NCBI GenBank assembly: GCA_043826455.1
Contig: JBDRQD010000046.1
Location: 1-64,000, forward strand
Direction: 5' to 3'
From: Candidatus Bathyarchaeota archaeon
Lineage (GTDB): Archaea > Thermoproteota > Bathyarchaeia > TCS64
DNA length: 64,000 bases
Within the stretch, counting starts at the first letter, position 1. Each line of letters begins with the position of its first letter. Made by a program: the position numbers and the translations under genes. Under the pieces are notes generated by a model. That model saw nothing but the letters and a program-made list of their open reading frames with translations, was not told the DNA's origin and did no database searches. This document shows, piece after piece, positions 1 to 40,010 of this stretch.

Positions 1-36
1 TTTTAGTCACTCGGGGCACCCACCCACGACGACGCA

Positions 37-285
37 CATGAGGCTCGGGCCACATATGAAAAAACGTAGGAGGGCACCCCATTTAGCACAAAAAAACCCC
101 AGAAACACAGCCCACAGCACCTCAAACCCCCGAAAAAGCAGCACCCCACAACGAACACCGCCACCCACCACCACCGCCAAACAACCCCGGAAAACCCTCA
201 GAACACGAAAACAAACCAGAAAACAGGGAACCGCGGTGGCGGTGAAGGGACCCCCCCCCTCCCCCCCACGCACACACACGGACAC
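37..285 (+). repeat. Dispersed element copy E1 (motif D at 53-78; inverted arms 166-177 and 233-244; C-tract/(CA)n tail); probably continues off the window start
   Basis: 156-280 aligns with the reverse complements of 3957-4085 and 60823-60940; 37-130 aligns with 26062-26160. Confidence 0.9.
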
Positions 286-325
286 CCCAGATAAACCCAA
301 ATACCCCCAAACCACAACACACCCA

Positions 326-619
326 ATGACCATCCCAGGCCCCAAACGCAGAAAACTCAAAGCCCAAGCCCACCACCTAAACCCCACCATCCAGATAGGC
401 AAAGAAGGAGTCACCCCCGCCCAAATAGAAACCATAAGACGCCAACTAGACCACCACGAACTCATCAAAATCAAGTTCATCGAACACAAACAACAGCGCA
501 GAGAACTATCCACCCACATCGCCCAACAAACCGACTCAGAAGCCATAGACCTCATAGGAAACACCCTCATCCTCTACAAACAGAACCCAGACCCAACAAA
601 ACGCAAAATAGAAGCCTAA
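326..619 (+). CDS. yhbY: YhbY/CRS1 family RNA-binding protein
   Basis: LKAQAHHLNPTIQIGKEGVT...HELIKIKF...IGNTLILYK; start placed at ATG 326, upstream ORF extension is repeat-derived. Confidence 0.9.
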   Translation: MTIPGPKRRKLKAQAHHLNPTIQIGKEGVTPAQIETIRRQLDHHELIKIKFIEHKQQRRELSTHIAQQTDSEAIDLIGNTLILYKQNPDPTKRKIEA

Positions 620-670
620 ACTCTACGCCCCAAAACAAGTCTTATAAGACAACATCCAGCAGTTCGCATC

Positions 671-1141
671 ATGGCACTCGACCCCACCGACACCGCCATC
701 CTCAGAGCCCTCCAGCAGGACGCCCGAACCAAGTACAGCACCATAGCAGAGGAACGCGGCGTCAGCGTGGACACCATCATCAAACGCTTCAAAAAACTCC
801 AACAACAAGGAATAGTCAAACACACAACCCTCCTCCTCGACCCCCGCAAACTCGGCTACGAAATAATAGCCAACCTGGCCATAGCCGCCGAGCCCAGCTG
901 CATCACCGAAGTCGTAGGCTACCTCCAGAACCGGGAGGGCGTCCTCTTCGCCACCCACACCATGGGCCAGTACGACGTACTCGCCCTAGCCGCCACCCGC
1001 ACCATGAACGAGATGAACGCCCTCAAAGAAGCCATCCAGAGCCACACCAAGGTCACCGACGTCAAAGCCAGCATATGGGTAGACCAGTTCCTCCTATGCC
1101 CCCAGAACTTCGAACTAGAACCAAAGGAGAAGACACAATGA
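671..1141 (+). CDS. Lrp/AsnC family transcriptional regulator
   Basis: LDPTDTAILRALQQDAR HTH; C-terminal RAM domain (GQYDVL). Confidence 0.9.
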   Translation: MALDPTDTAILRALQQDARTKYSTIAEERGVSVDTIIKRFKKLQQQGIVKHTTLLLDPRKLGYEIIANLAIAAEPSCITEVVGYLQNREGVLFATHTMGQYDVLALAATRTMNEMNALKEAIQSHTKVTDVKASIWVDQFLLCPQNFELEPKEKTQ

Positions 1142-1590
1142 ACGAACTCGACAAAAAGATCATAGAAACCCTCACACAGGACGCCAGAACCAGCTTCAGA
1201 AGCATAGCCGCTGAGACAGACAAGTCCACCGACACCATCATCAACCACTACAAACAACTCACAGCCGAAGGCGTCATCAGAGGCAGCACCGTCGTCCTCG
1301 ACACCCAACACATCGGCTACGAAGGCACAGCAGCCTTCCACATAGACGTAACAACCACCGCAGGCCACACACCAGCCCAAGTCCTACAGACCCTCATACG
1401 GATGCCCAACATCATCGTCGCCACCAAGACCGTCGGCGAACACGACCTCCTAGCCCTCGCCGTCATCCACAGCATCCAACACTACACGGAGCTAGGCCGC
1501 CAGATCGCCGCCATACCCGGCGTCCGAAACATCTCATCCAACGTCTGGGCCGGAAACCAAGAGATATGCCCCAAGTACTTCATCATATAG
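1138..1590 (+). CDS. Lrp/AsnC family transcriptional regulator (tandem paralog)
   Basis: MNELDKKIIETLTQDAR...GEHDLL; ATGA overlap with upstream paralog. Confidence 0.9.
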   Translation: MNELDKKIIETLTQDARTSFRSIAAETDKSTDTIINHYKQLTAEGVIRGSTVVLDTQHIGYEGTAAFHIDVTTTAGHTPAQVLQTLIRMPNIIVATKTVGEHDLLALAVIHSIQHYTELGRQIAAIPGVRNISSNVWAGNQEICPKYFII

Positions 1591-1617
1591 AGCCGTCAGC
1601 TGCCGCAGACACACAGA

Positions 1618-2229
1618 TCACTGTCTACGGGCAGACAGCACCCGGTACCCGCTGCCCCTAGACACCACCGTGTGCCCCCTAAAGTACCTGTCCAGGAACC
1701 CGGCCAGGGTCCTACCCCCCGTGTTACTCTGAACAACCAGCTGCAGCAGCCCCCCCGCCTCAAGGTGATCCACGGCCCCAGACACCAGAGGCTCCACCAC
1801 CTTCCTCATCCCCGCCGAGATGGGCGGATTAGAGACGATGGTCGAGAAGACCCGGCCCCCCACAGGCCCGTACAGGTCCCCGGTGAGCACCTCCACGTTA
1901 CCCACCCCCATCCTCCGGACGTTCACCCCGGCCAGCATGGTGGCCCGACTGTTCACGTCCGTCAACGTAACCCTGAGACCCGGCTCCGTCACCGCCGCCA
2001 CTAATCCGATGACGCCGATGCCGCAGCCCATGTCCAGGAGGCCGCCCTCCGCCGGCACCCACATGGACTCCACCAGCAGCCTGGTGCCGTTGTCAATCCT
2101 CTTGTGGCTGAAGACCCCGGTGGCCGTCATGAACCTGTATCGGCGGCCCCTGAGAATCGCCTCTATGATCCCCTTCTCCATCCTGGACCCAGGCTCAGAC
2201 GAGAAGTAGTGGCTCGCCACCGCTACCAC
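1618..2229 (-). CDS. Class I SAM-dependent methyltransferase (RsmC/MTS-like)
   Basis: GVFSHKRIDNGT, LLDMGCGIG, SNPP motifs. Confidence 0.85.
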   Translation of the reverse strand: MVAVASHYFSSEPGSRMEKGIIEAILRGRRYRFMTATGVFSHKRIDNGTRLLVESMWVPAEGGLLDMGCGIGVIGLVAAVTEPGLRVTLTDVNSRATMLAGVNVRRMGVGNVEVLTGDLYGPVGGRVFSTIVSNPPISAGMRKVVEPLVSGAVDHLEAGGLLQLVVQSNTGGRTLAGFLDRYFRGHTVVSRGSGYRVLSARRQ

Positions 2230-3203
2230 GTCTTAGGGTAGACACCCATGGGCATGATCACCCTGACGGCGGACGCCACGATGCCGTGTTCCTCGGCCTG
2301 GATCTTGCCGCTGCTCATCTCGGCCTTCATCAGCGCCACGGACTCCCCCTTCTGAGTCATGACCGCCACCATGTCGCCCACCTCGATCCCGGTCTCGTAA
2401 CGCACCACCCCCGGCACCGCCAGCTGAGCCCCGTTGCAGACGGCCTCAACAGCCGAGTCCCTTATCCACACCTTGGGGAGCAGCCGCAGGCCATCCTCCA
2501 CCGGCCTGATGATCCTCCTAAGAGGTCCCTCGTCCCCCTCGTCTCTCCTGTCGAGGGCGTCCGTGAGGTCGTACATGGTGAAGACCTCCTCCTCCGTGAA
2601 GGGTCCGGCCCGTGTCCTCCTCAGCTCCTGCATGTGGGCGCCGCAGCCCAGCACCTCACCCACGTCGAAGCAGAGCTTCCGTATGTAGGTGCCGCTCTGG
2701 CAGGCCACCCTGAACAGCCAGTTCCTGCCGTCGCCCTCGTAGAAGTCCACTTGGTATATCCACCGGGTCCTGAGGCGGCGGCTCACGCTGCTCCTGAGGG
2801 GCGGCCTCTGGAAGATCTCGCCGGTGAACAGGTCCAGGGCCTCGCGCACCCGTCTCTCAGACACATCCTCGTGGGTCCTCATGACGCAGACGTACTCCTT
2901 GCCGGACTCTAGGAGGGCCTGCACTACCTTGGTGCTGTCCTGCAGCGTCACGGGCAGCACCCCGGTGACCTTGGGGTCTAGGGTTCCGCCGTGGCCTACT
3001 TTATCCAGTTCTAGGAGTTTCTTCACCCAGCTGGCTACTTCGTGGCTGGTGGGTCCGGGCACCTTGTCTATCACCACTAGGCCGAACCTGATGTATTGGG
3101 GTAGAGGTCTCTGGTCTGGGGTGCACCCGTAGTTGGGGTTGGTTGTGTCATCGACTTTGACGCGGGTCTCTCTGGCTGTCTCCCAGGCGGGCCTCTTCTG
3201 CAT
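2223..3203 (-). CDS. cbf5: H/ACA RNA-guided pseudouridine synthase Cbf5 (TruB family)
   Basis: DKVPGPTSHEV, GHGGTLDPKVTG, GTYIRKLC, C-terminal PUA domain. Confidence 0.97.
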   Translation of the reverse strand: MQKRPAWETARETRVKVDDTTNPNYGCTPDQRPLPQYIRFGLVVIDKVPGPTSHEVASWVKKLLELDKVGHGGTLDPKVTGVLPVTLQDSTKVVQALLESGKEYVCVMRTHEDVSERRVREALDLFTGEIFQRPPLRSSVSRRLRTRWIYQVDFYEGDGRNWLFRVACQSGTYIRKLCFDVGEVLGCGAHMQELRRTRAGPFTEEEVFTMYDLTDALDRRDEGDEGPLRRIIRPVEDGLRLLPKVWIRDSAVEAVCNGAQLAVPGVVRYETGIEVGDMVAVMTQKGESVALMKAEMSSGKIQAEEHGIVASAVRVIMPMGVYPKTW

Positions 3204-3276
3204 GGGTATCCATCAACGACTTGGTGACTATAAAGTATAGCTCTTTATACTCAGGAGATCCTCCGACAATTAGGCC

Positions 3277-3951
3277 ATGGCTAAGGCTGTCCTCTTCGAC
3301 CTGGGCAACACCCTGGTGAGCTACTACCAGAGGCATGAGTTCCCCGGGATACTTGAGGAGGCCGTCAACGGCTGCGTGGAGCACCTGCGTGACGCCGGCA
3401 TTGGGTTCCGTGAGGAGGGTCTCTGGGACAGGGTCAAGGAGCAGGATCATGGTTCCCCTGATAACAGGGTTTATCCTCTGGGGTTGCGGCTGGCAGCTAT
3501 ATTTGGTTTGGACGACCAGGTGACCATTGACGGGTTGTGCCGGGTGTTCATGGAGCCTATTTTCGTGCGGGGTAGGCTTTACAGTGATGTGAAGCCTGCC
3601 TTGAGAGCTCTTAGGGCGGGTGGTGTGAAGACGGCTATTGTTTCTAATACGCCTTGGGGTAGTTCTGCTGGTTTGTGGAGGTTGGAGTTGGAGCGGTTGG
3701 GGTTGGCGAGGTTGGTGGATGAGGCTGTGTTTTGTGGTGATGTGGGTTGGAGGAAGCCGGATCCCCGTGTCTTCCAATACGCCTTGAGCAGGATCGGTGT
3801 CGAGGCTGGGGATTGTTTGTTTGTGGGTGATGATCCGAGGTGGGATGTGGTGGGGGCTGTGGGGGTGGGTATGAGGGCGGTGCTGGTGGATAGGACGGGG
3901 GAGGACCCTGATGCCCTGCACGGTCTCGGTGGGCTTCTGGGGCTTCTTTAG
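3277..3951 (+). CDS. HAD-superfamily hydrolase
   Basis: FDLGNTL, VSN, KPDPRVF, VGDD motifs. Confidence 0.9.
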   Translation: MAKAVLFDLGNTLVSYYQRHEFPGILEEAVNGCVEHLRDAGIGFREEGLWDRVKEQDHGSPDNRVYPLGLRLAAIFGLDDQVTIDGLCRVFMEPIFVRGRLYSDVKPALRALRAGGVKTAIVSNTPWGSSAGLWRLELERLGLARLVDEAVFCGDVGWRKPDPRVFQYALSRIGVEAGDCLFVGDDPRWDVVGAVGVGMRAVLVDRTGEDPDALHGLGGLLGLL

Positions 3952-3954
3952 GCT

Positions 3955-4090
3955 GTTTGTGTGTGTGCGTGTGGGGGGGGAGGGGGGGGTCTCTTCACCG
4001 CCACCGCGGTTCCCTGTTTTCGGGGTTGTTTTCTTGTTCTGAGGCTTTTTCTGGGTTGTTTGGCGGTGGTGGTGGTTGGCGGTGGTCGCC
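3955..4090 (-). repeat. Dispersed element copy E2 (arms 3996-4007 and 4063-4074; G-tract 3973-3989)
   Basis: Near-identical reverse complement of 156-280. Confidence 0.92.
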
Positions 4091-4260
4091 GCGGTTTTGT
4101 GTTTGGTGTGTGTGTTCTTTCTTGGTGTGGTTCTCTGCGGGAAAGCCGTGGTAGGTAGATTAAAGGAATTACTTTTTTGATGGGGGTTTATCGTCAACAG
4201 GCCTGGGTGTTGAGTCTTGCGCCTTTGTCATGTTTATTTATTAGGTTTAGCTTGAATTAA

Positions 4261-4557
4261 TTGATGGTTCAGGTTTGTCCTTTTTGTAGGAAACAGATCG
4301 CGGATGAGGATATGGTTTGCCCTTACTGTGGTGATCTCTTGATTTACGAGTATCCGAAGCAGGTAGCGTCTGAGAGAAACGCTGTGTTGTTTCCCGTTGG
4401 GTTTATGCTTCTAATTGGTGCTATTTTGTATGGGGTGTTTCAGTCAGAGTTCAGTGGTGTTATGCGTGGATTGTTTTTCGTCTTCTGGTTGTCTGGGTTC
4501 GTAGTCTTTTGTGTGTACGTTGGTAAAGGGGACAGGGATTTCTGGTGGGGAAGATAA
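4261..4557 (+). CDS. Zinc-ribbon membrane protein
   Basis: CPFC...CPYC followed by two hydrophobic helices. Confidence 0.75.
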   Translation: MMVQVCPFCRKQIADEDMVCPYCGDLLIYEYPKQVASERNAVLFPVGFMLLIGAILYGVFQSEFSGVMRGLFFVFWLSGFVVFCVYVGKGDRDFWWGR

Positions 4558-4673
4558 ATCCAGCCATATAGTGAAAACGTGCGCGTTTAACACAAACCAC
4601 TCTCCCGAGTGTTTGAATTAGTCAATTTATTATCAAGTCGTGGCGAATCGGCGCGCGCACCTAGGCCCCATTA

Positions 4674-4688
4674 TCCTCCGGGCTACCA
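4674..4688 (+). mobile_element. att-like remnant resembling the 3' end of archaeal tRNA-Gln (tcctccgggctacca)
   Basis: Resembles the CCCGGGCTACCA acceptor end; overlaps the 3' end of the integrase remnant; no upstream tRNA body. Confidence 0.5.
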
Positions 4689-5029
4689 CTGTCCATGCTC
4701 AGATATCTGCTACTTCTGAGCTTCTCTAACAGGGTTTTTCAGATAGTTTTCGACAGTATGGTGTATTCTTCTTCCTGTCTCTGCGTAGGATCAATGCTTG
4801 TTCTGTGTGGCTTCAATATAGCTTCCCGGCTCAACACCTCGCTAGGGTCCAAGCCCAATGCCATGGCAACGCCCCTCAGGGTCTCTATCTTGTTCATCTT
4901 GGTTTGTGGCCTGATGCTCAACCCTGCGTTACGATAGACTTCTCTGAGCTCCTCAACGTCTGTACTCTGCATATCGAGATACGTGTCCTGAATGTACCCC
5001 ATCATGCGCGACCACTTGTGTGTTATCAT
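4676..5029 (-). pseudogene. C-terminal remnant of a tyrosine recombinase/integrase
   Basis: MMGY...TY (degenerate H/Y catalytic region) then ELREVY..AGLSIRPQTK..KIE..GLDPSEVLSREA..PHRT; TGA at 4739-4741 interrupts a frame that continues KTLLEKL...SGSPE; N-terminus absent. Confidence 0.7.
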
Positions 5030-5068
5030 TTAAATTGATCCCTGTTTCAGACATTACATAATCTACAA

Positions 5069-5614
5069 ATGGAGAATCATACAATGGAAAGACCTTCAGT
5101 TTTTAAGGACCCCAACTTGTGGGGGGCATCGGTAATAATTCTTATCACAATCATTCTCTCGATAGCCACCTTTTTCCGTTGGTTCTCATTGCGTTTCCAA
5201 GTCGGTCCATTCTCTTTTACTCATTGGCTGGGTTGGATAGGGGCCCTGTTCATAGCATTTTACACGCCAATATACTATGTATTGAAGCGAAGAAACCCGA
5301 AACTAGTCAAAACACTCATCAAAATCCATGTATTTGGTAACCTACTTGGTGTCATGTTGATATCAATACACTACGCCCAACAGATGGGTAGGCCAGCAGA
5401 ATTCTATCCGGAGTTAGGAACAGGATTAACATTGTACATTGTAATGTTCATACTGGTAGCTACAGGTTTCCTTCACAGATTTGGGGTGTTAGATAAATTA
5501 GGGCGATATCGTATATTTCTGCCTCATCAAAATAGGTTTTTACATATTGCTATTACTTTGACTTTTTATATTGTTATACTTGTCCATATACTCCGAAACG
5601 TGGGTATTTTATAG
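5069..5614 (+). CDS. Multi-pass membrane protein with several in-membrane His (possible cytochrome b/ferric-reductase-like)
   Basis: About 5 hydrophobic segments; THWLG, KIHV, SIHY, FLHIA, LVHI; AT-rich. Confidence 0.6.
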   Translation: MENHTMERPSVFKDPNLWGASVIILITIILSIATFFRWFSLRFQVGPFSFTHWLGWIGALFIAFYTPIYYVLKRRNPKLVKTLIKIHVFGNLLGVMLISIHYAQQMGRPAEFYPELGTGLTLYIVMFILVATGFLHRFGVLDKLGRYRIFLPHQNRFLHIAITLTFYIVILVHILRNVGIL

Positions 5615-5665
5615 ACACCTTCATTTTTTTCTTGAAACCACTCAGATGCGCGCGCGTTAAACACT

Positions 5666-6484
5666 TTATTTCAAGTTAGCAGGTTGAGGATTTAGGTCTG
5701 TTATGGAGGATTTTATGGAATCAACTGTTTCCTTGTTCATCGTTACGATGCCCGCCTCCCATGTGATACCTGCGGTAGCATTTTGCTGGAAGTTCATCGA
5801 TGAAACAACCGCCAGTAAATCATCAATGATGACTATTTTTGCGTGTAAATTATTTTCATATAATATTTTTATCCCTTCCTTCAAAAGCCACTCGTGAAGC
5901 TTCTTCACATAAGGTCCACTAGAACTACGAGTTACTACCACAACAGTTCTACCATTTCTCCGTGCTGTGGTCAATAATTTTGTTGGCATACTCCGATCAA
6001 TAAACGGATTAACTACAATTATTGTGTTGAAAGCATGTGTGATGATATATTTAGTGAACGTGTCTAAGTAATGGCCTTCGAGGAAGAAATGCTCTTTTTC
6101 CAGTGAAATTTCAGGTTTTTCTAGTTTTACCCATGACTCAGTTGAAGTGATTATATCAGGATATTTTGGAGAAGGTTCTTCGTAATCATCGGGATATTCC
6201 CATTCCTCGGGAGGTTCAAGCCATTCATCCATATGTTCTTCAAAATATTCATAATCTGCCTCAAGTTCCGGACGTACTCTATATTTACCTGAATCTTCTA
6301 GAATAACATCGCCTTCTTGGATCAGTTCACCTAATAAAATATGAAGGTCAGTCCATTGATACAAAATGGTTTGGTTTAAAATTTTTTCTATTTCTTGAAA
6401 TGTTCTAGCCCCATGAAGAACAATCGCAGAAATAACTTCACCTTTCTCGGTAAACAGATGCTTGATCTCTTTTGGAGCCATCAA
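5666..6484 (-). CDS. Phospholipase D (HKD) superfamily protein, probable nuclease, with N-terminal wHTH-like domain
   Basis: LHAKIVIIDD...SSMN...EAG motif; AT-rich. Confidence 0.8.
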   Translation of the reverse strand: MMAPKEIKHLFTEKGEVISAIVLHGARTFQEIEKILNQTILYQWTDLHILLGELIQEGDVILEDSGKYRVRPELEADYEYFEEHMDEWLEPPEEWEYPDDYEEPSPKYPDIITSTESWVKLEKPEISLEKEHFFLEGHYLDTFTKYIITHAFNTIIVVNPFIDRSMPTKLLTTARRNGRTVVVVTRSSSGPYVKKLHEWLLKEGIKILYENNLHAKIVIIDDLLAVVSSMNFQQNATAGITWEAGIVTMNKETVDSIKSSITDLNPQPANLK

Positions 6485-6573
6485 AAGATAGTAGAGTATT
6501 CAAATTAAAAAATTATGCAAAGCGCTCGCAACACTTAAATAATTTATATTTTGGAAGTATTATATGAAAATTA

Positions 6574-7023
6574 ATGGACTTTATTACAGCATACATCATA
6601 TTTGTAATTCTTTTTATCTTCATTCTAGTTAAATTCGCAAAAAAGCCAACACACAAAACCTATGGCATCCAATCAATTACTAGTGACGGAAGAGAAGTAA
6701 AAAGCTATTCTGAAAAAATATTAGCAGATTACTTTCAAAATATAAATTTACGTTACCAGTATGAGCCAGGCTTAAATGACATATATGCAAATCCCGATTT
6801 CTACTTACCTGATTATGATGTATATGTTGAGTATTGGGGATTGCTTGAAGCAGACGATCCTTATGTCAAGCGTAACTATGAAAATCATATGAAACGTAAA
6901 ATGGCAATTTATTATGAAAATAAAATAAAATTCATTTCGATATACCCAAAAAACTTGGAAAACCTAGACTGGATTTTTAGAAAAAAATTTGAAAACGTAA
7001 CAGGTAAAAAACTACCTCACTAA
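6574..7023 (+). CDS. Membrane-anchored PD-(D/E)XK nuclease-like protein
   Basis: N-terminal TM; VKSYSEKILADY, PDFYL..YVEYWG. Confidence 0.7.
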   Translation: MDFITAYIIFVILFIFILVKFAKKPTHKTYGIQSITSDGREVKSYSEKILADYFQNINLRYQYEPGLNDIYANPDFYLPDYDVYVEYWGLLEADDPYVKRNYENHMKRKMAIYYENKIKFISIYPKNLENLDWIFRKKFENVTGKKLPH

Positions 7024-7331
7024 AATTATCCAACTATTAATCCGAGAATAATGCTTTATTGAACGTAAAATACTCTGATGAACGAATACTCCAAAACTCA
7101 AGATAAGATAATTTCACACTCCATGAATCATACTTACCGTTCACGTCAGCCCAGAAACCAACGAGAACCCATCTATATATTGTGTTTCCTTCAAGATCTA
7201 CCTGACCACGGGGCCCACTCTCCATCTCACAGACAAACAACTCACCGAACTGAAACCAGACTAGATCAGTACCTAGACCCCAGTATCCACCGGGCAACCA
7301 TTATATGAGGCACAGCCCCATGTAACCCATC

Positions 7332-8513
7332 TTGCTGAGTAAAACAGCCGTCAGACGCCTCATGCTCGATAAACAGGGTATAGGCCCCCACACCGGCTCA
7401 GCCGACAAGGAAGCCGTCTACAGGACCATAGACCGCCTGGGCTGCCTCCAGATCGACACCATCAACGTCGTCGAACGAGCCCAGTACCTCACCCTCTGGA
7501 CCAGACTAGACCAATACGACAAGAACAGCCTGGACACCCTAGCCTACCAGGACAGACGCCTCTTCGAGCACTGGGCCCACGCAGCCAGCTACATCCCCCT
7601 CAACGACTACAGGTACTACCTACAATCCATGCAGCAGAGAAGAGAGGAAGCAGAGCAGAGATTCAACCGCCGCACAGGCAAGGACCCAGAACTCATCAAC
7701 AGAGTACTAGACAGGATCAGAGACGAGGGCCCCCTGGGCTCCAGCGACTTCGAGGGCCCCAAACGGAAAGGCGGCTGGTGGAACTGGAAACCCGCCAAGC
7801 TAGCCCTGGAGCTCCTCCTCGGCGCAGGCATCCTCCAAGTCCACCACAGGAACAACTTCCAAAGATACTACGACCTCTCGGAGAACGTCCTGCCCCAATG
7901 GGTGAACACGGAGCCGCCCCCCGACGACGAACGGGTCAGGTTCTTCACCCTCAGAACCCTGGGCGCCCTGGGGGCCGTCAAACCCTCAGACATCAGGGAG
8001 TACTACCACCACTGGTCCGTCAAGCTGGGCCGCACCACCAAGCAGCTGGAGACCACCCTGGAGGAGCTGGTATCGGATGGCTCAGTCGAGAAGCACAGGA
8101 TCGAAGGTGAGAGGCCCAACTACTACGCCCTGGCCTCAGACTCCGCGGACGCCGAGCGACTATCCGACGACTGGGACCTAAACCAGGTGCGCCTCCTCAA
8201 CTACTTCGACAACCTCATGTGGAACCGGGGAAGAGTCCACACCCTCTTCGGGTTCCAGCCCAAGCTGGAGGTTTACCTCCCCGTAGATCAGAGAGTCTAC
8301 GGCTACTACCACCTACCGGTCCTACACGGAGACAGACTGGTGGCCCGCCTCGAACCCAAACTGGAGCGATCCGAGAGCAGCCTCAAGGTGAGAGGCTACT
8401 GGCTGGAGCCTGGCTTCAAACCCACCGAGGAGTACCAGGACAAACTGGAACAAAACCTGTGGTCCCTGGCCCGGCTCACGGGCGCGGACACCGTGACGTG
8501 GGCTACTTCTTAG
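7332..8513 (+). CDS. ycaQ: YcaQ/AlkZ family winged-helix DNA glycosylase (interstrand crosslink repair)
   Basis: LQIDTINVVERAQYL (QxD motif), FEHWAH, RVYGYYHLPVL. Confidence 0.88.
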   Translation: MLSKTAVRRLMLDKQGIGPHTGSADKEAVYRTIDRLGCLQIDTINVVERAQYLTLWTRLDQYDKNSLDTLAYQDRRLFEHWAHAASYIPLNDYRYYLQSMQQRREEAEQRFNRRTGKDPELINRVLDRIRDEGPLGSSDFEGPKRKGGWWNWKPAKLALELLLGAGILQVHHRNNFQRYYDLSENVLPQWVNTEPPPDDERVRFFTLRTLGALGAVKPSDIREYYHHWSVKLGRTTKQLETTLEELVSDGSVEKHRIEGERPNYYALASDSADAERLSDDWDLNQVRLLNYFDNLMWNRGRVHTLFGFQPKLEVYLPVDQRVYGYYHLPVLHGDRLVARLEPKLERSESSLKVRGYWLEPGFKPTEEYQDKLEQNLWSLARLTGADTVTWATS

Positions 8514-9285
8514 GCCAGCCCGTGACCTGAGTCTTGAGAGGCGGCTCACCCTTCACCTTACCCAGGACATCCATGGCCAGCTCCACGTTATCCTTAGGAC
8601 CCTCCAGGAGAAAGACCTTACAGCCCTCGGCACCATCAATGCCACCAGCTGCAATAGGAACAACGTCCACCCCGAAGAGAAGCCTCATGGCCTCCATCTC
8701 AGTGATGACCTGACCGTGAACCACAATGATGCCACACTTCCAGCCCATGCAGCGGTCGATGACCTCCGTGCCCATCATGCTCTGCAAAGCATCCAAGGGG
8801 CCCGGCACCAGCTTCTCCAAGCCGGCCGGTATTATGAGCTGAATCCCGTTCCTCACTATGTAGCCCCACGCCGTCCCTATGGTGCCCCCGCCGGCCCCCG
8901 CCAATAGTATCCCTGCGGCGCCGAAAGAGTCGATGGCGTTGGCACCCTTGATGAACACATCGTCCGGCCCCATCCTAGACAGATAGGGCACGAGCTCACC
9001 CGTGTTGCACTCCTTAAGCTGCCCCTTCTCAAACACATAGTGACTGTACCTGCCCTCCGTCTTGGTGATGTTGAGGCCCGTGGCCGTCACCACACCCGCG
9101 GTGAACATGCCCTTGTCGGGTATCTTCTTATCCATGAGCTCCTCGGCCACGTAGGCCGTGGTGGTGCTGGTGGCTAAGATTAGGATGCCCTCCTGGTACG
9201 CCTTCTGCACCGGCTCCATGCAACTGATGGCCTTGGCTATGAGCCGCTTGCCCTCGGCGGGGGTGAGAACTACCTGTGCCTTCAT
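8503..9285 (-). CDS. Conserved hypothetical protein
   Basis: VLTPAEGKRLIAKA, FIKGANAID, GLEKLVP; coherent codon usage. Confidence 0.75.
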   Translation of the reverse strand: MKAQVVLTPAEGKRLIAKAISCMEPVQKAYQEGILILATSTTTAYVAEELMDKKIPDKGMFTAGVVTATGLNITKTEGRYSHYVFEKGQLKECNTGELVPYLSRMGPDDVFIKGANAIDSFGAAGILLAGAGGGTIGTAWGYIVRNGIQLIIPAGLEKLVPGPLDALQSMMGTEVIDRCMGWKCGIIVVHGQVITEMEAMRLLFGVDVVPIAAGGIDGAEGCKVFLLEGPKDNVELAMDVLGKVKGEPPLKTQVTGWPKK

Positions 9286-9505
9286 GTCTGTTCCTCGGAT
9301 AACTATGCATGGAGATTGGGGCTTTAAATAAAAAGGTAGCTAAAGAGAGGCGGCCCGCCACCAAATAATACCCTAAGACCTGTCACCGTGCGCCATATTA
9401 TGGTGGCGGCTGAGCCGGAGTCCACATTAAAAATTTGAGCAAAGAGACCCCTGCCCCCATGAACACGTTTACAGTAAAGGATAAACTCGCCCGGCCGGAC
9501 CCGGG

Positions 9506-10297
9506 CTACACCGCGCCCTCCGCCAGGGCCTCCGCGTATATCTCCCCGAACTCCGTGAGACGGATGACCTTCATCTTGCTGCCCTTCTCGGCGTCCACCA
9601 GGCCCTTCATCTCCAGCCGCGCCACGATCCTGCTGAACCTGTTCCTCAGGGTGCTGTTAGCCGCCTTGTACCCAAACCACCGGATAATGTCGCTGATGCT
9701 CTCAGCCTCACCCCCGTTCTCCCGCAGCAGCACCAGGAGCTTCTTCTCCCGGGCCCACTCCTTCTCCTCGTGCTTGCTGCTGGGCTCCAGCCTGTACCCT
9801 GGAAGCTGGATCTCCGTAGGCTCCCTGCTGGGCTGCTCCCTGGCCCGGCTGAACCACTTCTCGAACTCGGGGGCCCCCGGCCTGCCGCTCACGTACCAGC
9901 CCGGGTCCTCGCTGGGGACACTGTAGACGCGGGCGTTCCTGAACATGAGGGCTATGGTGAGGGCTATCCCCATGGCCGTGTTGGTGGTGCTGGTGATGTC
10001 AATGAGGGCCTCCTCCCCAGAATCCCTGGCCTGGCTCATGATGCCGTGTATGGTGCGGAAGATGCTGCGCTGATCCATGGGGTCGTAGGGCACCATTATG
10101 GGGTCCAGTATCTCCAGCTTCTCCTTCAGCTCCTCGGCGTTCACCCGGCTCATGTAGCTGAACACGTTGCCGCCGCTCTCAGCCTCGTCGCTGTACAGGA
10201 GGTACAGCTTGGTTATTCCGTGAACCTTGCTCCAGTACCTGATGCCGTCGAAGGCTCGACGGTAGTGTTGTCCCACGAGGCAGATGATGATGGTCAT
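9506..10297 (-). CDS. CARF-like (Csa3/DUF6293-like) domain plus C-terminal wHTH regulator
   Basis: Rossmann-like N-terminus (IICLVG, KLYLLYS, LIDITSTT, VYSVP) and wHTH (SRIVARLEMKGLV...IRLTEFG). Confidence 0.65.
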   Translation of the reverse strand: MTIIICLVGQHYRRAFDGIRYWSKVHGITKLYLLYSDEAESGGNVFSYMSRVNAEELKEKLEILDPIMVPYDPMDQRSIFRTIHGIMSQARDSGEEALIDITSTTNTAMGIALTIALMFRNARVYSVPSEDPGWYVSGRPGAPEFEKWFSRAREQPSREPTEIQLPGYRLEPSSKHEEKEWAREKKLLVLLRENGGEAESISDIIRWFGYKAANSTLRNRFSRIVARLEMKGLVDAEKGSKMKVIRLTEFGEIYAEALAEGAV

Positions 10298-10568
10298 GGC
10301 GGATCCCCGGATGATTCACTCTTCCACTGATAAACCATTAACGCGTAGAATATATAAAATATGGTGAATGGAGACGGGGCGCCACTCATCATTCCCTTGT
10401 TTTGAGACAATCCCACATGTATCCGGGTTATCGTGACTATTCATCCGCTCAGAATTATAAGTATTATGGAGAGGACAAACACTCTAATATAGCACGATTC
10501 GCCTTACATATTTCATCTATGCGTAGTGTGCTCCATCGGAGACACACACTATTAAGGTTGCAAGTAAA

Positions 10569-10820
10569 ATGAAGGTCACAGTATACTCTTTACCCGACTG
10601 CCCCAAGTGCGACAAGCTCAAGAACTACTTGGAGAAGCGGGGAGTGGATTTCGAGGCCCGCTGGTTCGACACCGAGGCGCAGACGGATTTCATAATGATG
10701 AACATGTTCGGCAACCCGCCAATACTCGCGGCGGGCTCCGCCGTGAGGCCCTCCGAGGAGATGTTCGAGGGCGACACCCTGAGAGAAGAGAGGGTTGTGG
10801 AGGTTTTGGAGAGTGGCTAA
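10569..10820 (+). CDS. Glutaredoxin/NrdH-like redoxin
   Basis: VYSLPDCPKC; overlaps the nrdD start. Confidence 0.85.
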   Translation: MKVTVYSLPDCPKCDKLKNYLEKRGVDFEARWFDTEAQTDFIMMNMFGNPPILAAGSAVRPSEEMFEGDTLREERVVEVLESG

Positions 10821-13059
10821 GCTTAGGGACCTGCCCCCGTACCAGCGCAGGATAGAGGAGTTCTTCACAGAGAACATGTACATGGGGATGCCCATGGTGC
10901 ACACCACGGACGGGTACCTGGTGCCGTGGGAGAAGACCCGGATCACCGACATGCTGGCTCTGGAGACCACACTGGCTGAGAAGATGTTCGACATCCCCGC
11001 CATCGGAGATTCCACAGCCCAGAAGATAGCGGACGAGGTAGAGAGGCGCATCAAGCTGACCAAGCCCAGGTTCGTGTCGGGCCCCATGGTGAGAGAGATC
11101 ACCAACAACATCCTCCTGGAGTGGAGCCACGAGGTCCCCGAGTTCGGCATCTACAGGAACCTCCTGACCAGGGTAGGCGCCCCCGTCTACGACGCCTACC
11201 AGATCGACACCGGCGGCGGCTTCGAATCCAAGGAGAACGCCAACCTCCAGCCCAACCCTGAGACGATCCACAAGAAGAAGGCGGACATGCTCAGCAAGGA
11301 GCAGTACCTGCTGCTGATGGACCCCAAGCTGGCCACCGCCCACCACCAGGGGGACATCCACATCCACACCCTGGAGTACTTCGGCTCCAGGCCCTTCTGC
11401 CAGGACTGGGACCTCCGCTACTTCCTCTACTATGGGCTGATCCCCGACGGCAGCGGATTCAGATCCAGCGTCGCGGGCCCGGCGAAGCAGCCCGAGGTGG
11501 CCATACTCCACAGCGTCAAGGTGCTGGCCGCCGGCCAGACCAACTTCAGCGGCGGCCAGGGCTTCATGTACTACACCATGTTCCTGGCGCCCTTCCTGCG
11601 GGGCCTAGACTACAAGCAGATCAAGCAGCTGGCCCAGATGATGTTCTACGAACTCACCCAGACCTACGTGACCAGAGGCGGCCAGCTGGTGTTCAGCAAC
11701 ATCCAGCTCCCCATGGGAGTCCCCAAGATATGGAGGGACGTCCCCGTGGTCATGAAGGGCAGGATAGGGCCCGACACCTACGGGGACTACGAGGACGAGG
11801 TCCAGAAGTTCTTCCGGGCCATCAACGAGGTGGCCCTGGAGGGGGACTACTGGGGCAAGCCCTTCAACTTCCCCAAGAACGAGAACTATGTGTCCCCGGA
11901 GTTCTTCAAGCCCGAGTACGACGACCTTTGGCTCCTGGTGCACGAGGCCGTGAGCAAGTTCGGGGCCCCCTACTTCGACAACATGCTGCCCGCGTACCGC
12001 GGCTACGGCAACGGCATCAGCTGCTACCAGTGCTGCGCCTACCAGTTCGCCAACACGCCGGAGACGGACCCCAAGTTCTACGAGAAGCTGTACTTCCAGG
12101 ACGGCCAGCACTTCAGCATGGGCGGCTGGCAGGTGGTGAGCCTCAACATGCCCAGGCTCGCCTACAGGGCCAACGGCGACTACGACAGGCTGCTGGAGGC
12201 CGCCAAGGAGAACATGAGGCTGGCCATGGGGGTCTTCGACGCCAAGCGGAAGTGGATGGACAAGACCATAGGCGGGGGCATGGTGCCCTTCGCCACCCAG
12301 ACCCCCAGGGACCCCAGGACAGGGAAGAAGGGGCCCCCGGCCGTGGACTTCAGCGAGCTGGTGAACGTCATAGGCGTCGTGGGCATCAACGAGATGGTCC
12401 AGTACTTCACCGGGGGCCAGCTCCACGAGACCGACGACGCGGTGCGCCTCGCCGTCAGGCTGCTCCTGGACCTGGAGAAGTTCAGGAAGGGCCTGGAGAT
12501 GAGGAGCGGCTGGAAGGTGATGCTGGCCAGGACCCCGGCCGAGTCCACGGCCCAGACCTTCGCCGTCGCCGACCTCCTCCACCCAGAGTACAAGACCATG
12601 GCGCGGGGCATGATCAAGGGAGACCTGAGCAGCGTCAACGGCGTCACCAGCAAACGCGACCTCCCCATCTACTACACCAACGGCACCCACACGTATGTCG
12701 GGGCAAAGGTGCCCCTGGGGAAGCGGATCGACATAGAGCACAAGTTCTTCCCCATCCTCAGCGGAGGAAACATATTCCACGCCTGGATCGGTGAGAGCGC
12801 CTCGGACCCGGAGGCCCTGTACAAGCTGACGCAGCGCATCTGCCGCAACAGCCAGATAGGGTACTTCAGCTACACCAAGGACCTGACGGTGTGCAGCATG
12901 TGCCAGAGCACCAACGCCGGGATGCTGAAGAGCTGCCCCACGTGCGGCTCCGAGAACGTCCGGTACTGGAGCAGGATCACGGGGTACTACACGGATGTGA
13001 CGGGGTGGAACGAGGGCAAGCGCCAGGAGCTCATGGACAGGTACAGGGTAACAGTGTAA
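10813..13059 (+). CDS. nrdD: Anaerobic (class III) ribonucleoside-triphosphate reductase
   Basis: ATP-cone-like N-terminus, PFCQD, QCC, TPAES, YTNG, CxxC..CxxC, glycyl-radical RITGYY; GTG start. Confidence 0.96.
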   Translation: MAKLRDLPPYQRRIEEFFTENMYMGMPMVHTTDGYLVPWEKTRITDMLALETTLAEKMFDIPAIGDSTAQKIADEVERRIKLTKPRFVSGPMVREITNNILLEWSHEVPEFGIYRNLLTRVGAPVYDAYQIDTGGGFESKENANLQPNPETIHKKKADMLSKEQYLLLMDPKLATAHHQGDIHIHTLEYFGSRPFCQDWDLRYFLYYGLIPDGSGFRSSVAGPAKQPEVAILHSVKVLAAGQTNFSGGQGFMYYTMFLAPFLRGLDYKQIKQLAQMMFYELTQTYVTRGGQLVFSNIQLPMGVPKIWRDVPVVMKGRIGPDTYGDYEDEVQKFFRAINEVALEGDYWGKPFNFPKNENYVSPEFFKPEYDDLWLLVHEAVSKFGAPYFDNMLPAYRGYGNGISCYQCCAYQFANTPETDPKFYEKLYFQDGQHFSMGGWQVVSLNMPRLAYRANGDYDRLLEAAKENMRLAMGVFDAKRKWMDKTIGGGMVPFATQTPRDPRTGKKGPPAVDFSELVNVIGVVGINEMVQYFTGGQLHETDDAVRLAVRLLLDLEKFRKGLEMRSGWKVMLARTPAESTAQTFAVADLLHPEYKTMARGMIKGDLSSVNGVTSKRDLPIYYTNGTHTYVGAKVPLGKRIDIEHKFFPILSGGNIFHAWIGESASDPEALYKLTQRICRNSQIGYFSYTKDLTVCSMCQSTNAGMLKSCPTCGSENVRYWSRITGYYTDVTGWNEGKRQELMDRYRVTV

Positions 13060-13219
13060 GCACCAGCACCCTTTCTTTCAATCATGATTAACCATAAAGG
13101 ATTTAAGCAGTGGTAGGACACTCATTCATGATTAATAACGGCCCCCGTTGGCAAACAATACAGCCAACGGGTCATCAATACTTTTAATATATTCTGAATA
13201 TAATCCTAAATGTTACGCT

Positions 13220-13844: not shown

Positions 13845-14105
13845 CTAAGTTATTATTATGGCGGACTCCACGAGAGCCCTTAACTTATCGTTGTTTACCC
13901 CTGTGTAGACTATGGCTCCGTCCTCGTCGTAGATGATCTTGTTGGACGCCTCAAGGTAATCCAGCACCCGTTTGAAGGTCTGATACTGGACCTTCCTGGG
14001 CAGGCTCCTCCACAGCTTCATCTTGGTCGGGTACTCCTCCGCGTCTATGATGGCTTTCTCAATCATGAGTATAGTGTCCAGCCGGGGCTCGTGCAGAACC
14101 TTCAT
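13845..14105 (-). CDS. Small wHTH-like hypothetical protein
   Basis: PRLDTILMIEKAI...LWRSLPRKVQYQTFKRVLDYLE. Confidence 0.7.
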   Translation of the reverse strand: MKVLHEPRLDTILMIEKAIIDAEEYPTKMKLWRSLPRKVQYQTFKRVLDYLEASNKIIYDEDGAIVYTGVNNDKLRALVESAIIIT

Positions 14106-14159
14106 CACAGCCCAACAAAATATACAGTTATATAAACTTATACAACTCAACGATTGAGG

Positions 14160-14771
14160 TCACATAGCCAGACTTAGCAGGAGCCCTGCAAGGTCGTGGA
14201 GTACCCCCACCACAACAATCCACAGAAGCACAACAACCACAGCTCTCCCCCAAGAAAGGCTGAACACCTCCCTGACCGCCAGGCCCTGCCACACCGTGGC
14301 CCAAAGACCCACAGCGTAGAAGGGGTTAGGAGCCCAGCCGAAGAGGAACCCCGGCGTCATACCGTAGACCACGGCCACGGCGGACAGCCTCTGAAAGTCA
14401 CCGAACGCGGGCCTCCCCATGACGAGCCAGGCAGCCGACGCCAACACGGGGGCGCTCACCGCGGCCAGCACCAGATAACCCGCCATCACGAACCCTGCGA
14501 AGAACAGGGCCTCAGCCAAGCCGCCCACCTTCAAGCCCAGGGTCTCAAGAGCCCAAGGCGCGAAGATCTGTGCAGAACCCCCCGCGTTACTGGGGTTGGA
14601 GTAGTCCACCCCGTAGAGGCTGAGGACACCGGAGATGAGGGCAGTGACCCACCCAATGGTCAGGACGTGGCACAGGGAGTCCCTGAAGCCTCTATCCCTG
14701 AGCGACCTGAACGCGCCGAGGGGGTCAACAACGATCCTGTAGACCAGGCGCAGCCGCTCCAAACAGGCCAC
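14160..14771 (-). CDS. Yip1-like membrane protein
   Basis: IVVDP..AF N-terminus, five TM helices, LAVREVFSLSWGRA. Confidence 0.7.
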   Translation of the reverse strand: MACLERLRLVYRIVVDPLGAFRSLRDRGFRDSLCHVLTIGWVTALISGVLSLYGVDYSNPSNAGGSAQIFAPWALETLGLKVGGLAEALFFAGFVMAGYLVLAAVSAPVLASAAWLVMGRPAFGDFQRLSAVAVVYGMTPGFLFGWAPNPFYAVGLWATVWQGLAVREVFSLSWGRAVVVVLLWIVVVGVLHDLAGLLLSLAM

Positions 14772-14864
14772 CGTTGATAAATCCCAGCCTGGAAATATAT
14801 CTATAGTTGAAACTTAGAATACACCAAGCCCACCCTTTTTATCACTCAGCAACTCCATCCCCTC

Positions 14865-15311
14865 ATGGAGCTCGTCTACATAGGCCGCGTCCGCTCACCC
14901 GTCACCGAGGCCGTGGACATGAACTGGGGCCATGTCGTCTCCGAGATCGTCCTGGAGCCCGAGTACGCCCCCGGCCTCCAGGGCCTAGAAGAGTTCAGCC
15001 ACGTCCTCGTCCTCACCCACCTCCACAAGGCAGAGTGGGACCCGGAGAAGCACCTCCGGCGCCGCCCCCAGGAGCGCAGCGACATGCCCCTCACCGGCAT
15101 CTTCGCCCAGAGGGCCCGCCACCGCCCCAACAGGATAGGCGTCACAGCCGCCGAGATAGTCGAGGTCACCGGTAACACATTGAAGGTCCGGGCCCTGGAC
15201 GTCGTGGACGGCACCCCCATCATCGACATCAAACCCTACGTACCCTACTACGACCGCAGAGACGCCGCTATCCCCGAGTGGATGACCCGAATGATGAAAG
15301 ACTACTTCTAG
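14865..15311 (+). CDS. trmO: tRNA m6t6A37 methyltransferase TrmO/TsaA family
   Basis: GLEEFSHV, GIFAQRARHRPNRIG, LDVVDGTPIIDIKPY. Confidence 0.92.
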   Translation: MELVYIGRVRSPVTEAVDMNWGHVVSEIVLEPEYAPGLQGLEEFSHVLVLTHLHKAEWDPEKHLRRRPQERSDMPLTGIFAQRARHRPNRIGVTAAEIVEVTGNTLKVRALDVVDGTPIIDIKPYVPYYDRRDAAIPEWMTRMMKDYF

Positions 15312-15363
15312 TTAGCTAAATGCAACCCGAAAAATTATCACATTCTTCCACGCAGCTGTCATC
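15311..15363 (+). repeat. Short intergenic repeat family C, copy 1
   Basis: ttagctaaa-gcaa-cc-aaaaa-tatcacattct...gtcatc shared with 51759-51810. Confidence 0.7.
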
Positions 15364-15475
15364 AGTCCCCCGTATTCGCCTCATTACATGCCATATGTAA
15401 CAAACCCTGAGCCCCCCCACAACACAATTCCCAGCCACTAGGAACAAACCCCAAGAATACCAGAGAAACCAGAGG

Positions 15476-16105
15476 CTACAGCCTATGCGGCGGCGGATAC
15501 CTGGGATACGCCACCCTACTAGGCCCCAGGCCCAACTCCACGGCCACCTCCGCCAACTTCAGGCTGGCCTCACCCCCATCCACCACCGGCAGCCCCGTCC
15601 TCTCCCGGAGAGGCCGCCCCATACCGAACATGCCCAGACAGTCCAGGTAGAAGGAGTCATACCCCTCCGCAACAGCGGCGCGGATAGCCTCCTCCGTCAG
15701 CCTGTAAGTCAGATCCAGGTCGTCCCTGAGCCGGAGCACCGGCAACGGGTGACGAATCCTACCCACCCGCTTACCCGCCATGGACGCCAGCAGCCGCATG
15801 GCCTCCCCCGGCCCGATGACGGGGATATCCACCAGGGTCCTGGCCTCCTCCACACCAGGGTCACCGCCACACCAGCTGATAACCGCGTCGTAGCCATCAG
15901 CCTCAGCCGCCTCCACATGCTTGATGACCTCAGCCGCGGCCTGAAGATGATCCACGGCGCACTCGATGGCCGGAGGCCCCTCCCTCACCTGAAGGTACTC
16001 CACCTCGGTCCCGTCCCTCGCGATGGACCTGAGGAAGCTCATCCTCTCCTCCATCTTGCCGCCGTCCAACCCAGTGATGGAGACAATCACCAGAATCCTC
16101 ATCAC
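15476..16105 (-). CDS. Asp/Glu/hydantoin racemase family protein
   Basis: GPPAIE, CGGDPG, PVIGPGEA, LDCLGM, PVVDG. Confidence 0.85.
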   Translation of the reverse strand: MMRILVIVSITGLDGGKMEERMSFLRSIARDGTEVEYLQVREGPPAIECAVDHLQAAAEVIKHVEAAEADGYDAVISWCGGDPGVEEARTLVDIPVIGPGEAMRLLASMAGKRVGRIRHPLPVLRLRDDLDLTYRLTEEAIRAAVAEGYDSFYLDCLGMFGMGRPLRERTGLPVVDGGEASLKLAEVAVELGLGPSRVAYPRYPPPHRL

Positions 16106-16198
16106 CCTGGAATAAGTGGCACAGGTTTATAACGTCCACTAGCCCAGGGCCCCCAGAAAACATTTATCGTCAACCCGCCCACGTTTACCTGAGCAGGG

Positions 16199-16660
16199 TT
16201 GACCTTCAGAGTAGGCTACCTCACCCAGAGGGAGCAGGACATCTGGGACCTCAGGCGCCGCCGCAACACCCAGTCACAGATAGGCCGCATGATGGGCGTC
16301 AGCCGCCAGGCCATCCACAAGGCGTACCAGATCATTGACCAGAAGGTTGAGCAGGCCTTCCTGGAGGCCGCGGACGCCAACCACCTGGAGCCGAGCACCA
16401 TCAACCTGGTGGAGGGTGTCATGGAGGCCCACAGCCCCGCCTACAGGATCCCCGTGGTAGTCAGCTTCAGCAAAACCAACGGCGTCAAGGTCTGGTACCT
16501 CTACGAGGGTAAGTGCGGCGAGTGCCACCTGGAGAGCAGCTGTAGGGCGACCCTGGAGAACGAGGCCCAGGAGCGGGGCGTAGACATCACCGCCGCCGAC
16601 AAGCTGAGGACCCCCACCCGGCTCGCCACAAAGATATTCGGGTTGGACGACGCAGGATGA
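16199..16660 (+). CDS. HTH DNA-binding protein (sigma-4/LuxR-like) with C-terminal Cys cluster
   Basis: LTQREQDIW..TQSQIGRMMGVSRQAIHK; CGECHLESSC. Confidence 0.7.
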   Translation: MTFRVGYLTQREQDIWDLRRRRNTQSQIGRMMGVSRQAIHKAYQIIDQKVEQAFLEAADANHLEPSTINLVEGVMEAHSPAYRIPVVVSFSKTNGVKVWYLYEGKCGECHLESSCRATLENEAQERGVDITAADKLRTPTRLATKIFGLDDAG

Positions 16661-25699: not shown

Positions 25700-26190
25700 G
25701 AATGAGGCATTTCACTGAGGAAAAGCACAGAATATAAGATGGAATTTTTTTTCCGCCTTATCCCGGCTGGTACGGGATAGGCCACCTAACTAACGATACG
25801 CCCACCATGTCAGCACCGGAGCCCCAGACAGAGACAGGGGGGTAGAGCAGGTGAACCGTGAACGGCCGCCCCCGGCCAAAAGGAGCCCGGGAAACACGCC
25901 TTATCGATCCCATTCTATGCAAAAACGTCGTCCATTCCATATAAAAACCCGGCCCAAAAATCACATCAACCACTGCGCAATGGAGAGCCTGATGTGAAAA
26001 AACGTAGGGGGGTATCATATAATGGCGAATATTTTCAACAATACAAGAATTTTAGGGGCCTCATGAAGCCTATGGGCGGGCACATGTGAAAAAAGGTAGG
26101 GGGGTATCGATTTTAGGAAGAAAAAACCTCCTAAAATACGGGCTTCGGACCCTAACCCCACAATAATATGAAATGTGACCCAAATCCTCT
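25700..26190 (+). repeat. Dispersed element copy E3 (core B 25737-25760 plus hairpin; motif D at 25991-26016 and 26083-26108)
   Basis: Collinear with 55565-55945; also matches 37-130 and the reverse complement of 61000-61210. Confidence 0.88.
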
Positions 26191-39926: not shown

Positions 39927-39959
39927 AGGCCCTAATTTATATTTTACAGGTTTTTAAGC

Positions 39960-40010
39960 ACGAAGAAAAAGATGGAAAATTTTTTCCGCCTTATATCCTC
40001 TAGGACGGTA
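39960..40010 (+). repeat. Dispersed element partial copy E4 (core B only)
   Basis: agatggaaaattttttccgcctta at 39970-39993 matches 25737-25760 and 55605-55628. Confidence 0.7.

Follow-up and report, generated by a model that had tools for sequence, protein, structure and literature searches.

One-sided strand composition is known from several genetic systems. In vertebrate mitochondria, deamination of the heavy strand accompanies a gradient along which one strand is G/T-rich, and conserved sequence block II (CSB II) carries a G-tract. Meiotic break hotspots show strand-asymmetric mutation together with GC-biased gene conversion, while Chi sites and repeats of the repetitive extragenic palindromic (REP) or miniature inverted-repeat transposable element (MITE) type are polar, dispersed, intergenic, and often found beside tRNA 3′ ends or insertions. 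Replication-linked skew at bacterial origins is gene-independent and reverses across the site; it is reversed in direction at ori3 of Haloferax volcanii according to PMC12999951, where archaeal chromosomes are also held to show little strand-specific mutation or repair and NucS is held to be unable to act strand-specifically. Here, we analyze a window of 64,000 nucleotides, positions 1–64000 of contig C46 of the Bathyarchaeota genome G000 (a metagenome bin of 2.95 Mb in 81 contigs with 7% contamination), whose left end carries two copies, E1 and E2, of an intergenic repeat of ~130 bp termed family A. Beside such repeats and at other sites, A and C accumulate over ~1–2 kb on the strand whose 5′ to 3′ direction leads outward. 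On that outward strand keto-to-amino changes are fixed more often, and the reverse changes less often, than elsewhere, a pattern that suggests a hitherto undescribed bias of repair or recombination acting in one direction and not an elevated mutation rate.

The original prediction, made from the letters of the window, had described the DNA between E1 and E2 as a single gradient from C/A-rich to G/T-rich. Its counts were confirmed: G+T accounts for 9 of 60 bases at 301–360 and 50 of 60 at 3661–3720, extremes reached by only 54 of the 49,088 non-overlapping 60-mers of the genome, and G+T per 60 nucleotides climbs from 280 to 3950 (Spearman 0.92). The notion of one gradient did not survive, since the rise is made up of two opposed skew zones, each fading over ~0.9 kb from its own repeat copy and meeting near 2500. 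Scored at synonymous third positions with the coding-strand mean subtracted (negative values being C/A-rich), skew runs from −0.74 at 501 through +0.05 at 2501 to +0.77 at 3501. Zone 1 (288–2400, plus strand C/A-rich; −0.74, −0.65, −0.59, −0.18) fades rightwards from E1 (152–287, C-rich strand on plus), and zone 2 (2900–3951, minus strand C/A-rich and plus strand G/T-rich; +0.34, +0.77) fades leftwards from E2 (3955–4088, minus strand); the two repeats (152–279 against 3961–4088) are inverted copies with 90% complementarity. Plus-strand fourfold-degenerate sites bear out the opposite bias claimed for two genes of the same orientation: yhbY (326–619, plus; CRM domain, PF01985, E 5e-25) has A10 C29 G0 T0, that is, 39 of 39 C/A, and the HAD hydrolase gene (3277–3951, plus; PF00702) has 1/21/48/43 for A/C/G/T. 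The corresponding figures are 13/59/3/0 and 16/52/2/1 for the two intervening Lrp/AsnC regulators, lrp1 (671–1141, plus; PF13404, PF01037) and lrp2 (1138–1590, plus; PF13412, PF01037). In the small methyltransferase gene on the minus strand (1618–2229; MTS, PF05175) the skew tracks the strand and not the gene, in agreement with the claimed independence of gene orientation, and within the Cbf5/TruB pseudouridine synthase gene (2223–3203, minus; PF01509, PF01472) the two zones cancel, the score at 2501 being near 0. The proteins follow the DNA, as had been proposed: the KQHTPN fraction of YhbY is 0.43 as compared with 0.25–0.39 in six weakly skewed orthologs, and the GVLWFC fraction of the HAD C-terminus is 0.51 as compared with 0.24–0.41 in five orthologs. 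A third zone (7001–9000, plus strand C/A-rich; −0.44, −0.47, −0.21, −0.32) points outward from the right edge of an AT-rich insertion (3954–7277) whose left edge is formed by E2, and no repeat of family A, B, or C lies at its head.

The same polarity recurs throughout the genome, for which genes were called by a simple home-made dipeptide model (3,224 calls). Family A comprises 44 genomic copies (43 BLAST matches plus one found by profile), and self-comparison of the genome yielded two further dispersed families, B with 61 regions and C with 47. Within 250 bp downstream of A, fourfold sites of genes on the C-rich strand have frequencies of A.30, C.62, G.06, and T.02, and those of genes on the opposite strand A.02, C.18, G.54, and T.26, against a baseline (A/C/G/T) of.12/.45/.31/.11. 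Downstream skew is negative at 37 of the 39 scorable copies (17 of 18 sense and 20 of 21 antisense cases) with a mean of −0.37, whereas the most extreme mean in 20,000 null draws was −0.11. The profile peaks at the C-tract, with decay lengths of 0.89 kb on the downstream side and 0.47 kb on the upstream side. Beyond the variable site the sign reverses: 2.5–6 kb upstream, scores are positive for 25 of 32 family-A copies (p 0.0002) and for 32 of 43 copies of family C, while far downstream no flip was seen (17 of 35 copies). Fourfold-site skew is hence correlated with element position and orientation. Zones also accompany family C (−0.25) and, weakly, family B (−0.12), yet 122 of the 187 skew tracts in G000 have no A, B, C, or tRNA at their head. 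A scan of 21 element-free heads for a common hidden motif returned none, although two heads counted as element-free turned out to carry diverged C copies. Element-free borders of AT-rich DNA skew outward in 92 of 130 cases (mean −0.10), and among 50 adjacent tract pairs 21 are divergent and 9 convergent. Skew autocorrelation is gone by 6 kb and 25-kb bins mostly stay within 0.09, so that a skew on the scale of replichores was rejected. Bins beyond 0.33 were counted in samples of the genomes concerned: 38 of 845 in G000 (three contigs), 12 of 208 in G017, 5 of 226 in G018, 7 of 147 in G036, a member of another family, and 1 of 98, 0 of 39, and 0 of 64 in further genomes. In two MutS-bearing controls zones are nearly missing from the samples (H. 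volcanii pHV4, 1 of 223 bins; Escherichia coli, 1 of 117). The A copies of G013, G008, and G019 likewise carry zones, as judged by raw skew.

To polarise the direction of change, orthologous DNA was retrieved by targeted searches; the stretches of G000 covered amount to 172 kb for G044, 229 kb for G013, and 191 kb for G008. With G044 treated as the sister lineage of G000, counts on the C/A strand up to 1.5 kb downstream of 13 A or C copies gave 108/1266 for G>A and 20/2123 for C>T against a background of 0.038 each, that is, a ~2.3-fold rise and a ~4-fold fall, and this asymmetry holds in both gene orientations. A latent-class fit places G>A at 0.090 (0.069–0.115) and C>T at 0.007 (0–0.012) as compared with 0.036, and A>G at 0.081 (0.009–0.138) as compared with 0.099, T>C not being estimable. 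Fourfold divergence in the zones is not raised (0.162–0.168 vs 0.175). Near the heads the bias is steeper: the G>A rise on the C/A strand is 3-fold within 750 bp and ~6-fold at HAD and yhbY. In the G000 lineage, third positions of HAD show C>T at 34/70 and G>A at 1/42, its codons as a whole show 13 A>G and no T>C, and the yhbY-lrp segment shows G>A at 10/22 and C>T at 0/95 against a background of 51/639 in the same trio. Transversions take part as well. G>C exceeds C>G (16/442 vs 13/1042; 43/149 vs 20/263 in a second dataset), T>A exceeds A>T at codon positions 1–2 (16/1229 vs 5/1407; p 0.008, uncorrected, among 12 tests), and C>A is as frequent as G>T at fourfold sites. T>C prevails over A>G in one dataset (21/2649 vs 10/2756). 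The A>G/T>C question is underpowered because four regions, available as ortholog tables without DNA, are left out of the polarised counts. Coding-strand background is symmetric, and a cause in transcription was rejected on the orientation-independence of the pattern and on this symmetry; a deaminase-context cause was rejected likewise, neither TpC nor any other deaminase-like context having been found around the changes. The original prediction had named C>T and A>G on the G/T strand as the deamination signature of persistent exposure of single-stranded DNA. Both classes are present at HAD and the polarised substitutions are strongly strand-asymmetric, but transversions accompany them, the A>G/T>C asymmetry is inconsistent between datasets, divergence is not in excess, and C>T on the C/A strand stands at about a quarter of background; exposure is therefore retained below as a rival and not as the leading reading. 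The prediction had taken its direction from motif D (53–78), which indeed differs from both E3 copies (25991, 26083) by two G>A and two T>C and is derived at all four positions relative to an 18-copy genomic consensus. Motif D belongs to family B (a repeat end at 30–98, plus strand, matched by BLAST to other B copies) and not to E1 or E2. Copy-versus-consensus spectra of families A, B, and C are only mildly asymmetric and uninformative.

Measured against the described systems, the zones share single features with each. Like the mitochondrial gradient they have one G/T-rich strand, with a G7AG7-like tract in family A, and a C>T excess on one strand that fades with distance. They differ in being ~1 kb long and located at many chromosomal sites, in having the 3′ end of the G/T strand at the element, the reverse of a displacement loop (D-loop) started there, and in the participation of transversions without a rate increase. 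A raised total substitution rate with the other strand unchanged, as deamination would give, was not seen in the zones, where C>T on the other strand is 0.007–0.009. On the same grounds of polarity, inferred from fourfold sites, a D-loop, rolling-circle, or CSB II-type start at the element was rejected. Meiotic hotspots resemble the zones in kilobase scale, sign flip across the center, and fixation bias without selection, whereas the bias here is keto-to-amino on one strand rather than AT-to-GC, the organism is a prokaryote, and the center is a variable site. Origin-type skew is likewise gene-independent and reverses across its site, but the zones fade within 2–3 kb, span no replichore, and number 187 tracts in one genome. 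In common with Chi, REP, and MITE-type sequences, family A is polar, dispersed, intergenic, and often beside tRNA 3′ ends or insertions; it differs as a homologous 130-bp element in 44 copies with no terminal inverted repeats or target duplication seen. The present analysis contributes the sign flip, the element-free edges, the polarised fall of C>T with no surplus divergence, the classes of transversion, and the context of repair genes. A literature search, with most subscription journals outside its scope, returned nothing on such one-strand drift.

Gain of family A is accompanied by a stronger zone on the same sites. On 237 shared sites the HAD flank of E2 scores −0.44 in G000 and +0.06 in G019, a site on contig C6 scores −0.73 as compared with −0.16 to −0.18 in three relatives, and one on C35 scores −0.40 as compared with +0.05 and +0.23. 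E2 itself came together with the 3.3-kb AT-rich insertion. Nevertheless, the repeat is dispensable: of 14 relatives, 8 have a strongly skewed yhbY (≤ −0.76), and in 7 of these the fetched locus contains no A. Besides family A, zones adjoin family-C repeats, the 3′ ends of several tRNA genes, and the borders of AT-rich insertions. Nor is it sufficient, since the copy beside cdc6 has no zone (−0.01). Hence the proposal that the element marks a polar site was right in tying the skew to position and orientation, and went too far in making the element necessary.

We tentatively favor strand-polar biased gene conversion at the edges of variable sites, filtered by the mismatch endonuclease EndoMS/NucS, as an explanation that may well be wrong but fits the polarity and the rates. 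In recombination beside a site that varies in content or starts transfer, only the outward-pointing 3′ tail could pair, and the incoming strand would thus always be of one polarity. EndoMS/NucS would cut G/T, G/G, and T/T but not A/C, C/C, or A/A mismatches, so incoming G and T would be rejected while A and C pass; far from variable sites, tails of both polarities would cancel. The decay length (~0.9 kb) would then correspond to heteroduplex length, and rare events would be enough, conversion acting like selection. The repeat would mark long-lived variable sites and might itself start events without being required. Pairing of outward 3′ tails alone would account for polarity, sign flip, and exponential decay. 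According to PMC4838380, EndoMS prefers G/T, G/G, and T/T and hardly cuts A/C, C/C, or A/A, preferences with which the excess of G>C over C>G, that of T>A over A>T, and the equality of C>A and G>T at fourfold sites agree; PMC11551744 describes the rejection of such mismatches of incoming oligonucleotides by mycobacterial NucS. This substrate set matches the direction of the drift, and the gene is present in G000, together with a uracil glycosylase, and in 25 of 32 genomes of the genus, though no compositional footprint of EndoMS/NucS is reported in the literature searched. MutS_I has no match in G000 and one among the 32 genus genomes, and both zone-free controls carry it. That single match, on one contig of G014 (C375), may be a contaminant or a recent gain. 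Plain added damage of single-stranded DNA is insufficient because damage cannot lower a rate, and C>T is down to about a quarter of background, while a single fixation-bias parameter of 2–2.5 gives both factors (~2.5 and 0.2), the bin at 750–1500 bp fitting less well. The rise near heads (34/70 and 10/22 vs 51/639) lies beyond the twofold ceiling of a fixed-fork model, and a look at neighbor variability by GC content at third codon positions (GC3) gives weak support (−0.44 vs −0.28).

Several observations weigh against biased conversion. Under stricter outgroups (5 copies) G>A is only 10/239 against a background of 0.033, C>T remaining low at 5/486. Conversion predicts that A>G falls and T>C rises, as is seen at HAD and in one dataset, but in another T>C stands at 23/1229 and A>G at 32/1407. 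C>A exceeds G>T at codon positions 1–2, an inequality not foreseen by the simple model. Zone strength shows no relation to loss of upstream synteny (rho about 0, n 15–27, in a coarse test on fragmented bins). Copies of A that have native DNA upstream keep zones (−0.28), and the copy beside cdc6 has none although its upstream synteny is broken. G034 and G025 possess NucS, yet zones occupy 0 of 39 and 0 of 64 bins in these small samples. The winning strand after an archaeal EndoMS cut is assumed by analogy with mycobacterial oligonucleotide recombination as given in PMC11551744, and both conversion and the action of EndoMS are inferred from sequence.

A rival we consider rather unlikely invokes damage to single-stranded DNA combined with strand renewal: the G/T strand, its 3′ end at the site, would repeatedly become single-stranded and the C/A strand would be remade, so that lesions of the former are fixed and others erased. 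The route might be a one-ended break undergoing resection, or polymerase stalling at a G7AG7 quadruplex on the leading template. The geometry and the 1-kb decay suit resection, the largest class of change is C>T on the G/T strand, C>G could arise from abasic sites, A>G is unchanged in the latent-class fit, and a tight four-tract G motif occurs in 33 of 44 A copies, out of 38 such motifs in the entire genome. However, to cut C>T on the C/A strand fourfold, renewal would have to take place in almost every generation at well above 100 sites; divergence shows no increase, deaminase context is lacking, and T>A over A>T is no product of deamination. Moreover, zones persist (−0.21 to −0.55) at 7 of the 10 scorable A copies that lack the G motif, for which reason a quadruplex as sole cause was rejected, and family-C and element-free sites have zones too. 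Local starts of DNA synthesis, a doubtful candidate in our estimation, would fix strand roles near the site (C/A strand nascent and outward) and mix them elsewhere, errors that escape EndoMS building up on the nascent strand. The divergent polarity, the sign flip, and the redistribution rather than addition of rates speak for this, as do the presence of the single cdc6 gene ~400 bp from an A copy and the position of an H. volcanii origin where third-position GC skew is at its maximum, opposite to the bacterial arrangement (PMC12999951). Pure mixing limits the rise to twofold, whereas 3-fold within 750 bp and ~6-fold at HAD and yhbY are seen; with autocorrelation gone by 6 kb a start would be needed every few kilobases; and the copy beside cdc6 has no zone, A being present at 1 of 29 cdc6 loci of relatives. 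For the last two reasons a conserved oriC position for A was rejected. An origin beside cdc6 was dismissed as well, its apparent allelic series in raw skew having vanished at synonymous sites because the raw bins held the element itself.

Still less probable is weak selection that keeps the strand with its 3′ end facing a break-prone site G/T-rich, for example as a better substrate of RadA, the repeat acting like Chi. The arithmetic of fixation bias is the same as for biased conversion, and the G strand of A ends in TGG/CGG triplets, TGG repeats being the sequences on which RecA filaments are most stable according to PMC3763553; by analogy RadA might share the preference. Against it, the predicted fall of A>G and neutrality pattern of G>T/T>G are not consistently seen, the drift alters proteins, and the triplets are found on both strands of A. 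That the pattern is an artefact of assembly, codon usage, or transcription direction is very improbable indeed, even though it comes from a metagenome bin with 7% contamination and a home-made gene model: reading frames are intact and match Pfam, source contigs agree, both gene orientations show the pattern over a symmetric coding-strand background, and relatives assembled independently show it again. At 1–4033 and 4057–9000 the window is matched without a difference by contigs of the probable source run, while 4034–4056 is bridged by no listed piece; these contigs share reads with the assembly and are to that extent not independent of it. One of them, of 24.6 kb (X1, record 2), has A copies at both ends. 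Run X1 alone entered the evidence, the other runs containing small shares.

If conversion filtered by EndoMS were true, it would amount to a new evolutionary force comparable in size to codon selection, allow recombination sites and heteroduplex length to be mapped in uncultured archaea from sequence only, and make the strand choice of EndoMS testable. A wider proposal, which is more conjectural than biased conversion at these sites, is that archaea with EndoMS only carry a strand-polar, keto-to-amino biased conversion through which the genome records where past DNA exchange took place, in which direction, and over what tract length, and which is strong enough to reshape core proteins, family A being a cis signal that starts or stops one-way exchange. 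Exposure of single-stranded DNA or local replication starts would instead mark more than 100 unusual chromosomal sites. Under any reading, the drift distorts protein composition and phylogenies of adjacent core genes.

Family A is built of CRCCRCC repeats, helically phased A-tracts, an inverted GGYGGYG repeat, a C7TC7-like tract, and a CA-rich tail. It occurs in 4 of 40 relatives in a first search plus G044, all within the genus. A structured non-coding RNA was rejected given zero Rfam matches and little covariation (1 of 12 pairs compensatory, covariation term −0.21); no RNA holder is listed. Terminal inverted repeats of the MITE or insertion sequence (IS) type are absent, the inverted repeats being internal, and no target duplication is visible in three filled/empty alignments of diverged relatives. 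Phages gave no match, nor did IMG/VR by one exact pattern, a systematic genome search for an autonomous partner not having been made. Seven of 40 tRNA calls by ARAGORN lie within 150 bp of an A copy, and all seven face it with their 3′ side. The copy at G000:C39:51119, beside a tRNA-Leu gene, is stripped of most of its G residues, which suggests that the element itself is eroded by the zone. E1 has a degenerate ortholog at the same site in G019; in seven relatives a divergent tRNA gene (Gln by eye) lies upstream of yhbY (L045, L046, L048, L056, L059, L060, L062), where G000 and G019 have E1. One intergenic gap (G000:C39:61660; L138 of G044) is occupied by a module plus A in G000 and by an unrelated insert carrying a C motif in G044, and is empty in both G013 and G008, which points to independent insertions at one site. 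The copy at G000:C60:1452–1577 (L011) lies just downstream of the sole cdc6 gene and a winged-helix gene, a locus that carries A in G044, a hybrid of C and the A tail in G013, and only the 5′ module in G008. The third A copy of the window (60822–60946, minus) coincides with a switch of skew sign (+0.36 to its left, −0.52 to its right).

Family B is a modular intergenic repeat of 300–450 bp with ~60 copies and several short palindromes, also present in G017, G019, and G044; in the window it occupies 25701–26142 (plus, with the two E3 motifs), 39956–40017, 55526–55927, and 61128–61203. Family C contains two 7-3-7 palindromes with a common asymmetric core, ~45 bp apart, reminiscent of sites for a repressor or recombinase; its 5′ module is also found in many A copies. 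By eye it bears a resemblance to an origin recognition box (ORB). Its copies in the window lie at 15310–15461 (plus), with a zone of its own in synonymous score (14001–16500), and at 51759–51811. The AT-rich insertion has a GC3 of 0.28–0.63 as compared with 0.81 in the next gene and is missing in G019, which aligns to 304–3953 and 7278–13184 with one shared junction; E2 has no counterpart at the orthologous site in G019, G002, G045, or G018. The insertion encodes a zinc-ribbon membrane protein, a PLD-like protein, a truncated-looking open reading frame of 96 amino acids, and unknown genes, and pieces of it are found at high depth in soil metagenome contigs.

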